Shown piece after piece: positions 8,287-9,948 of a stretch of DNA of 64,000 nt. Below the pieces are notes generated by a model. It made no database searches. It was given only the letters and a program-made list of their open reading frames with translations, and was not told the origin of the DNA. Position 1 is the stretch's first letter. Every line of letters starts with the position of its first letter. The translations under genes were made by a program, and so were the position numbers. The stretch lies in assembly GCA_000146465.1 (NCBI GenBank), contig CP001947.1; one strand, written 5' to 3'.

Positions 8287-9948
8287 CTATCTTCTTAGAA
8301 CAATGAGTCTAGAGGTTATCAATAAACTTATCAACACAATCATCAGTAAGATTACGGATCTACTTCTAATGACAGCTAGAGTATTAGCCTTCTGACTCCA
8401 GATGTCCGGAAGTTTTATTGGGGAAAAAAGTGAAGTGAAGACTGGAGAACATACATCGTACTGGTCCAGACACCAGAGACTGCCATCCTTAGATGAGCAC
8501 TTTGTGCTGGGAAATTTCCCTACTCTTTCGCACATCAAGGCTTCTGTTTGCAATACTCCTTTCTTGCAGAAGCCTTCTGGGACCGGCCTAGACCCATCCT
8601 GAGCATACTTGATTCTGCATATAGGGGATTCTCCGTCGCAGTAACTCCCCTCCTCACAGTTCATCTTGTGAATATTTGAAGATCTTTCTTTGCACATTGT
8701 GTTTTTTGGAAGTAAGCTGCAGTCTTTACAACATCTTCCATTTCGGTCATCGCACTGTGCCCCAGACCTTAACTTGCATTGTCTAGTACAGCAAAGAGAA
8801 CCATTTGGAAGACCTGAGTCACACTCTTTTTCTCCCTCAACCACGCCATTTCCACAAGTGTCTATCTCATCGAACTGGATCTTGTTCTTCAGAATAAACC
8901 TTTCTATTTGCTTTATGTTTCGGTTACTGAGGACAGCACTCTCTTCCTTCTCTAACGGACCCTCTTCCTCCCTCATTAGACACCCTTTATCCAAATCGTG
9001 TTCTGCACCCAGCCCATGTGCTATCTCATGTGCAAGCACCTTCCCCTTATAGAAGTACGAGTCCGACTCCAATATCTTAACAACTCCAAATCTCCTTGTG
9101 ATAGAGCCCATTCCTCCAACAAACGTCAACCCATTCACTTTTATGCTGGATGTCTGAAGAAGAAGGACAAGATTAGACTTCTCTAGGAGCATCCCTATCC
9201 TTGTATTCTCTTTTACAGGCCTGAGGATCCTACTAAATTTCCTGAGTGTTCCAACACTATCGGTTTTTTCAATCCATTCTGGATCAATGTCTCTCGTTTT
9301 TATCATTTCTAACTCTCGTAGTCTAACGTAAGATTTCGGAATCAAAGGCTTGTCTATAACATTAAGTATTCCATTCAGGGACAGCCTGATGCCATCGATG
9401 CTCCATCTGTTCCTTTCAAATATGTCTTTTGCGTTTCTGAATATTTCTATTGTGTCAAGATTGATGTCCGGACCTATCTCCTGAACTCTATCGAAGTCGT
9501 TGATCAAAAACACTTTGATAACTTTTTTAGTGTTCTTCACTTCTTTGCGCTCCTTGGAATCCTCTTGTCTATTCATGGAAATATTTCCCAGTTTCTTGAT
9601 TATGACTCTCCCATCTTCTCCCGATTGGATCCGATACATAACTCCAGAGGATACGAACGATCCATAAATGAAATTACAGAAGGATATTGAGCCGTAGCAC
9701 TCTTCTTCATCAAGACATTCAATGGAAAAGTCACACAGGTTCTGCCTCATGACTGTCCCATTGATTTCAAGGGATGAATCTGCCAGCTTAAGCCTGAAGT
9801 CTCTTCCAAAGGCTCTAAAGACCATAATGAGGCTGGAAGACAAGGGAACACTTTCCATTGGGATCATTTGGCCGCTAAGGTCTGCAAATTCCAGGCTTAT
9901 TTCCTCTGTTTTACAGAATACAAAAGAAAGCATAGAAAACAAAAGCAT
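8287..9948 (-). CDS. ADAM/reprolysin-type zinc metalloprotease with a disintegrin-like cysteine-rich domain and a C-terminal transmembrane anchor
   Basis: Features seen: N-terminal signal peptide MLLFSMLSFVFC; a perfect reprolysin zinc motif HEIAHGLGAEHD followed by a Met-turn CLM; a Cys-rich disintegrin-like block (CGNGVVEGEKECDSG...CCTRQCKLRSGAQCDD...CCKDC); and a C-terminal hydrophobic helix ILLMIVLISLLITSRLIVL. Confidence 0.85.
   Translation of the reverse strand: MLLFSMLSFVFCKTEEISLEFADLSGQMIPMESVPLSSSLIMVFRAFGRDFRLKLADSSLEINGTVMRQNLCDFSIECLDEEECYGSISFCNFIYGSFVSSGVMYRIQSGEDGRVIIKKLGNISMNRQEDSKERKEVKNTKKVIKVFLINDFDRVQEIGPDINLDTIEIFRNAKDIFERNRWSIDGIRLSLNGILNVIDKPLIPKSYVRLRELEMIKTRDIDPEWIEKTDSVGTLRKFSRILRPVKENTRIGMLLEKSNLVLLLQTSSIKVNGLTFVGGMGSITRRFGVVKILESDSYFYKGKVLAHEIAHGLGAEHDLDKGCLMREEEGPLEKEESAVLSNRNIKQIERFILKNKIQFDEIDTCGNGVVEGEKECDSGLPNGSLCCTRQCKLRSGAQCDDRNGRCCKDCSLLPKNTMCKERSSNIHKMNCEEGSYCDGESPICRIKYAQDGSRPVPEGFCKKGVLQTEALMCERVGKFPSTKCSSKDGSLWCLDQYDVCSPVFTSLFSPIKLPDIWSQKANTLAVIRSRSVILLMIVLISLLITSRLIVLRR

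Follow-up and report, generated by a model that had tools for sequence, protein, structure and literature searches.

A reduced ADAM10/17-type zinc metalloprotease gene of Encephalitozoon intestinalis

The DNA considered here is a stretch of 64,000 nucleotides (the window) from contig CP001947.1 of assembly GCA_000146465.1, whose minus strand carries a gene of the ADAM type between positions 8287 and 9948. The open reading frame (ORF) begins with the ATG at 9948; no other start lies between this ATG and the in-frame stop that precedes it. In the database comparison, a protein of Encephalitozoon intestinalis ATCC 50506 matches the product of 553 amino acids with 100% identity. This protein is named 'zinc metallopeptidase' at NCBI and 'Disintegrin and metallop…' in UniRef. 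The gene is real and intact, and it is an ADAM10/17-type zinc protease gene of E. intestinalis. Its features, from the N-terminus to the C-terminus of the product and with the evidence for each in brackets, are the following.

8287..9948, minus strand: complete ADAM-type gene, 553 codons plus the stop codon at 8287-8289 (ORF list and translation).
9910..9948, minus strand: hydrophobic leader MLLFSMLSFVFCK, residues 1-13, putative signal peptide (N-terminus hydrophobic in all orthologues).
9583..9909, minus strand: all-beta prodomain-like domain, residues 14-122, with invariant C72 and C91.
9523..9582, minus strand: disordered, charged linker of variable sequence that joins the prodomain to the catalytic domain, residues 123-142 (predicted local distance difference test, pLDDT, below 50; poorly conserved columns).
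8869..9522, minus strand: M12B (adamalysin/reprolysin) catalytic domain, residues 143-360 (Pfam Reprolysin family models, Foldseek, PDB profile matches).
8995..9030, minus strand: zinc-binding and catalytic motif HEIAHGLGAEHD, residues 307-318 (motif scan, orthologue alignment).
8971..8982, minus strand: CLMR Met-turn, residues 323-326 (alignment with snake venom metalloproteinase, SVMP, ADAM17 and fungal ADAMs).
8611..8868, minus strand: disintegrin-like module with an ADAM17-type 13-Cys framework and the loop CKERSSNIHKMNCEE, without RGD, residues 361-446 (Cys spacing, family profile).
8389..8610, minus strand: probable membrane-proximal Cys domain in reduced form (5 Cys) and stalk, residues 447-520 (profile alignment to ADAM17).
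8296..8361, minus strand: hydrophobic anchor, either a transmembrane (TM) helix or a glycosylphosphatidylinositol (GPI) signal, residues 530-551, followed by RR at 8290-8295 (hydropathy, AlphaFold2 helix, family-wide terminal position).

The catalytic domain is marked by the motif HEIAHGLGAEHD, which fits the extended pattern HExxHxxGxxHD and occurs only once in the protein. The motif residues H307, E308, H311 and H317, together with L324 and M325 of the Met-turn, are invariant in 13 of 13 orthologues whose overall identity is only 33-71%, and the final D of the pattern varies among them (D/E/G/S). The zinc motif is also kept in the more distant microsporidian homologues. The Met-turn CLMR aligns with the canonical CIM-x turn of the SVMPs, which reads CIMRP in catrocollastatin, and with VM or IM in ADAM17 and the fungal ADAMs. 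The reprolysin motif and the following Met-turn, both reported by a previous sequence-only reading of this stretch, are thus confirmed. Only 8 residues separate the third His from the Met-turn, an unusually short loop compared to the 14 residues in the SVMP. C323 is the sole Cys from residue 92 to residue 364, which leaves the catalytic domain of Encephalitozoon without disulfides; intradomain disulfides are a typical feature of the M12B family and not a defining one. The Encephalitozoon/Ordospora clade also lacks the Cys residues located after the Met-turn (…GCTTC…EC…), which other microsporidia and fungi keep, and the result of this loss is an adamalysin domain free of disulfides.

The relationship to the reprolysin family is seen most clearly at the level of the family profile, which was built from the 13 orthologues. 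This profile matches the P-III SVMPs catrocollastatin (E 8e-23) and RVV-X (E 4e-22), as well as ADAM17 (E 2.7e-21) and ADAM22 (E 2.5e-12), and the Pfam models PF13582 and PF13583 match all 13 orthologues. The AlphaFold2 (AF2) model has a mean pLDDT of 59, with the catalytic domain mostly at 60-82. In the Foldseek search with this model, adamalysin II, BaP1, ADAM8 and ADAM33 are matched at a target-normalized TM score (TMt) of 0.69-0.73 (E 1e-7 to 1e-8), and the best overall structural match is the full-length ADAM17 (8snl_A, E 4e-14). Two results obtained with the single sequence are weaker. First, its matches to the Pfam models of the reprolysin family are weak, at 19-24 bits, and three of the five are just above the gathering score: PF13583 with 23.4 (cut-off 22), PF01421 with 22.4 (cut-off 20.8) and PF13582 with 22.5 (cut-off 22.4), while PF13688 and PF13574 stay below their cut-offs. 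Second, the Pfam Disintegrin model PF00200 is not matched by this protein at E<=1. The domain check proposed along with the sequence-only reading therefore recovers the reprolysin model in this protein and the disintegrin model only in relatives, 3 of the 13 orthologues (best E 1.8e-8). Judged by the profile scores, the reprolysin/ADAM match is nevertheless far beyond chance.

The disintegrin assignment draws on the family-level searches and on the Cys framework, both of which point to a module of the ADAM17 type. Of the 24 Cys residues of the protein, 18 are located between residues 365 and 500. Counted from the CGN motif, the gaps between successive Cys of the module are 10,9,0,3,7,6,0,2,8,11,5,6, compared to 10,11,0,3,7,6,0,2,8,7,5,6 in human ADAM17, so that 10 of the 12 spacings are identical within the same 13-Cys framework. 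Such agreement bears out the disintegrin-like, Cys-rich module that had been proposed earlier, for which Cys spacing was the suggested check. The family profile also matches free snake disintegrins (E 1.9e-8), and its alignment spans the disintegrin domains of SVMPs and ADAM17. The AF2 model of this module is of low confidence. In the multiple alignment, an 'ECDxG' element without the second Cys and a 'CxDxNGxCC' element occur in Microsporidia, Blastocladiomycota, ADAM17 and a snail homologue; ADAM1a, ADAM24 and catrocollastatin lack them. The alignment with ADAM17 runs on to query residue 522, through the membrane-proximal domain, compared to residue 467 for the SVMP alignments. This membrane-proximal region (447-520) contains 5 Cys residues and no ADAM17 CxxC motif; it matches no Pfam model and is poorly modeled by AF2. 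RGD and KGD were not found anywhere in the protein by the motif scan.

An epidermal growth factor (EGF) module is absent, as in ADAM10/17. A neighbor-joining tree of a small sample, built from 143 columns with 100 bootstraps and without an ADAM10 sequence, places the monophyletic Microsporidia (84%) inside an ADAM17-type clade (84%), apart from the classical ADAMs. The ADAM17-type disintegrin, the lack of the EGF module and the tree grouping together assign the protein, by its sequence characters, to the ADAM10/17 subfamily. This assignment agrees with Gazave et al. 2009, in which the Adam genes of Fungi and Microsporidia are the closest to ADAM10/17 (PMC2770060).

At the other end of the protein, the N-terminus MLLFSMLSFVFC forms a short hydrophobic leader, which is kept in the orthologues. 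The signal peptide of the sequence-only reading therefore stands as a conserved leader, and its signal function is predicted from the sequence. The leader is followed by an N-terminal domain of the ADAM prodomain type, which sequence methods do not recognize: PF01562 is not matched at E<=10 in eight orthologues, and the comparison of this domain with the N-terminal regions of fungal and animal ADAMs by hhalign gives a probability of 1.4%. In this non-significant alignment, C72 and C91 are placed opposite the Cys pair of the propeptide core and not opposite the PxxCG switch, and the pattern of aligned residues (F-L-L … C-x-F/Y … S-x-S-x-C-x-x-I-x-G) is similar to the core of the propeptide. In the sequence scan, no Cys lies between C91 and C323, and thus there is no cysteine-switch motif; the motif scan of the linker 123-142 did not find an R-x-[KR]-R furin-type site. 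The latency of ADAM17 is not known to need a cysteine switch, and therefore the absence of the switch and of the furin site does not exclude membership in the ADAM family. In a more speculative reading, a short prodomain of this kind, furin-independent and without a cysteine switch, may represent a minimal ADAM latency module.

The C-terminus contains the only strongly hydrophobic 19-residue windows of the protein (residues 521-553), within which the AF2 model forms a helix at 530-552 with a pLDDT of about 82-84. The single C-terminal TM helix claimed by the sequence-only reading is thus found as one terminal hydrophobic segment, which is more probably a TM helix than a GPI signal. Only 2-7 residues follow this segment, so that, unlike animal ADAMs, the protein has no cytoplasmic domain. 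A possible but less probable alternative to the TM helix is a cleaved GPI-attachment signal, in which case the mature protease would be lipid-anchored on the outer leaflet or moved to the spore wall. The hydrophobic stretch ends exactly at the C-terminus in most family members, often after small residues (SAG, SAAPASAD, DSNSAA), the uncharged core in Encephalitozoon is merely 15-16 residues long, and GPI signals are predicted for microsporidian spore-wall proteins (PMC7040029, table), all of which would suit such a signal. On the other hand, the Encephalitozoon core is followed by a basic end of 7 residues (RLIVLRR, KFVILRR) that is typical of a stop-transfer tail, and the AF2 helix is single and continuous. 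Most of the other microsporidian relatives, and six of the seven Blastocladiomycota examined, have a terminal stretch of 17-24 residues with 0-1 residues after it. Across the microsporidian and Blastocladiomycota ADAM17-type C-termini (P0022-P0043), 0-7 residues follow the anchor, in the manner of GPI signals, whereas animal ADAMs have long cytoplasmic tails.

Taken together, these features support the sequence-only reading and refine it. The full ADAM architecture that it described is present as leader, catalytic domain, disintegrin module and anchor; it does not extend to a cytoplasmic tail, a furin site or a cysteine switch, and the Cys domain appears reduced. The protein is of the ADAM10/17 type, it includes a prodomain, and its anchor is maybe a GPI signal.

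The distribution of the family was traced by an exhaustive profile search of cluster representatives, since the word-indexed search with the family profile returned almost nothing beyond the single-sequence search. It recovered 1,411 cluster representatives at E<=1e-3, among them 35 at E<=1e-30. The named close relatives include those of four Encephalitozoon lineages, two Ordospora species and the genera Gurleya, Binucleata, Conglomerata, Hamiltosporidium and Vairimorpha. The orthologues of O. colligata and O. pajunii, with 406 amino acids, retain about 35 residues of the disintegrin module before they end. At the syntenic locus of O. colligata (L001 5001-6480), the stop codon is followed by an AT-rich spacer of 260 bp, in which no traces of the missing Cys-rich region and anchor were found. 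A pseudogene created by a frameshift was considered for Ordospora and rejected, because the truncation is clean and no C-terminal remnants lie downstream. The Ordospora orthologue is probably a soluble secreted protease. The Vairimorpha homologue (343 amino acids) consists of the prodomain and catalytic domain only, without the disintegrin, the Cys-rich domain or the anchor. Since both genera keep the catalytic core and lose the stalk, the core is the conserved part and the adhesive stalk is dispensable.

Similar variation is observed among the microsporidian relatives of 340-425 amino acids (P0044-P0059). Some of them, such as P0055 of Vairimorpha necatrix, consist only of the leader, a prodomain-like region and the catalytic domain, and in P0044 and P0053 a C-terminal hydrophobic segment is joined straight to the catalytic domain. 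Such forms suggest repeated remodeling of the stalk among the microsporidian relatives.

The E. intestinalis protein is probably a reduced but complete zymogen of an ADAM10/17-type zinc metalloprotease that is tethered to the surface. The analysis shows its identity, the order and folds of its domains, the intact and conserved catalytic residues, the orthology and the synteny. For the steps that lead from secretion to proteolysis, including latency, activation and the topology in the membrane, we infer the following sequence of events. The short leader would take the protein into the secretory pathway, where the ADAM17-like N-terminal beta prodomain would hold the catalytic domain latent and aid its folding. 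The prodomain would then be removed at the linker 123-142 by autolysis or by another parasite protease, since the protein lacks both a furin site and a cysteine-switch motif. After this, the mature enzyme would remain tethered to the parasite plasma membrane or the spore surface through the disintegrin, the membrane-proximal stalk and the terminal anchor, with no cytoplasmic signaling tail. It would cut extracellular or juxtamembrane substrates with zinc bound by His307, His311 and His317, Glu308 acting as the general base and Met325 forming the turn beneath the metal. By analogy with Mde10 of Schizosaccharomyces pombe, the substrates are best guessed to be proteins of the parasite itself, at its surface or in its spore envelope; the alternative is host surface proteins.

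In a host-directed scenario, the enzyme would be exposed on the surface of the spore or sporoplasm, or where parasite and host meet, and would act on host molecules, either by shedding host proteins, as ADAM17 does, or by engaging integrins through the disintegrin stalk. Such a role is considered unlikely; if true, the protein would be a genuine factor of invasion or virulence and a drug target sensitive to hydroxamates. A little less likely still is a mainly non-proteolytic adhesin, in which the disintegrin on the spore or sporoplasm surface would bind host integrins for adherence and infection and the protease domain would be secondary. The protein does contain a disintegrin module, and many animal ADAMs serve as integrin ligands, but disintegrin domains of the ADAM10/17 type are not known as classical ones. 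Adherence of E. intestinalis and infection by it are influenced by RGD peptides and by the host integrins alpha3beta1 and alpha5beta1, but this effect is RGD-dependent (PMC7040029) and the protein contains neither RGD nor KGD. Every orthologue keeps the catalytic residues unchanged, contrary to what one would expect of a protein that can do without proteolysis. Furthermore, Ordospora lost most of the disintegrin module and Vairimorpha all of it, and both keep the catalytic domain; with the stalk dispensable and the protease core conserved, a primarily adhesive role becomes less likely.

The ADAM gene lies among housekeeping genes. The Utp21 gene (plus strand, ending at 8269) is convergent with it, and the stop codons of the two genes are 18 bp apart, which leaves room only for shared or overlapping termination signals at their 3′ ends. 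Such tight convergence is typical of Encephalitozoon compaction. Upstream of the ADAM gene there is an ORF of 224 amino acids, followed by a Bud32/RIO-like kinase. This ORF (window 10036-10710) has no Pfam match, and neither has its syntenic counterpart of 207 amino acids in Ordospora. The gene order around the ADAM gene is kept in Ordospora colligata, and the guanine-cytosine (GC) content of the region is ordinary for the window. Elsewhere in the window, a sharp low-GC island is found at 53000-55500, with 27-30% GC compared to 42-44% in its surroundings, and contains two ORFs. In the first (53151..53717, minus strand, 188 amino acids), the last 22 residues match the start of Homeobox_KN in Pfam (E 7.9e-6), so that the homeobox looks truncated. 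The second (53798..55276, plus strand, 492 amino acids) is rich in Asn, Ile and Lys and has no Pfam match.

The next tier of the exhaustive search, after the microsporidian relatives, is formed by the Blastocladiomycota Paraphysoderma, Blastocladiella, Allomyces, Catenaria, Sorochytrium and Coelomomyces with 137-181 bits; with the same profile, human ADAM17 reaches 79 bits and ADAM10 29 bits. The analysis favors vertical inheritance from an opisthokont ancestor, because of these nearest outside relatives, the tree and the conserved synteny. Horizontal acquisition from an animal host (of ADAM17 or ADAM10) is judged highly unlikely: the tree does put the Microsporidia beside human ADAM17 and the snail protein and not beside the Blastocladiomycota, and the Cys framework is nearly identical to that of human ADAM17, but this placement within the ADAM17-type clade has a bootstrap of only 51%, the 13-Cys framework is also common to the Blastocladiomycota ADAMs, which outscore both human proteins, the gene is present across divergent microsporidian genera in a region of conserved synteny and ordinary GC content, and Gazave et al. 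inferred an opisthokont-level origin (PMC2770060).

The gene and its ADAM identity are already known, and the finding is correct but ordinary. Since the gene is annotated, and the orthologue of E. cuniculi was published as an ADAM in 2009, in the alignment of Gazave et al. (PMC2770060, Additional file 1), nothing here is new as a genome-scan discovery. A 2020 review of microsporidian invasion does not mention ADAM or any protease (PMC7040029). No functional data on a microsporidian ADAM, including searches for 'MADAM', locus tags and links to spore-wall proteomics, were found in the searchable peer-reviewed literature. An Encephalitozoon 'MADAM' is said to have been described at the exospore, the plasma membrane and the polar sac-anchoring disk, reportedly in unpublished theses of the Hayman laboratory (East Tennessee State University). 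The significance of the gene lies in its retention: although Microsporidia have shed most of the extracellular signaling machinery, several genera retain an ADAM10/17-type protease whose catalytic residues are intact. Such retention points to a conserved requirement for proteolysis at the surface in spore formation or invasion and makes the gene a sensible, if unsurprising, subject for experiments. As a naturally minimized ADAM, it would also be useful for studying prodomain latency.

Among known systems, human ADAM17 and ADAM10 share a sequence identity of about 15-25% with the E. intestinalis protein. With about 110 residues compared to about 190, its prodomain has about half the length of theirs, without the furin site and without a cysteine switch of the PKVCGY type. 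Its catalytic domain is free of disulfides and has a much shorter loop between the third His and the Met-turn, while the probable membrane-proximal domain, with its 5 Cys, lacks the CxxC thiol switch and is not followed by a cytoplasmic tail.

The top PDB sequence-profile matches are the P-III SVMPs (catrocollastatin/VAP2B, the RVV-X heavy chain and VAP1), in which the catalytic domain and the disintegrin align, including the C-I/L-M Met-turn. However, the disintegrin of SVMPs and classical ADAMs contains 15 Cys, with two extra Cys (one in ECDCG and one further), and is accompanied by a classical ADAM Cys-rich domain. The SVMPs are soluble secreted toxins.

By profile score, the nearest non-microsporidian relatives are the 'ADAM protein B'-like proteins of Blastocladiomycota, which share the ADAM17-type Cys framework, the Met-turn and a hydrophobic segment at the extreme C-terminus. 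These fungal ADAMs are longer (650-870 amino acids), their prodomains of about 240 residues do not align by sequence with the microsporidian N-terminal domain, and they keep the Cys pairs of the catalytic domain that Encephalitozoon lost. The fungal sequence comparison covers Blastocladiomycota, and the Aspergillus ADM-A and ADM-B and the S. pombe Mde10 are likened by description. Mde10 has a role in the formation of the spore surface and its spikes (PMC4019487), and for a spore-forming parasite it offers a plausible functional analogue.
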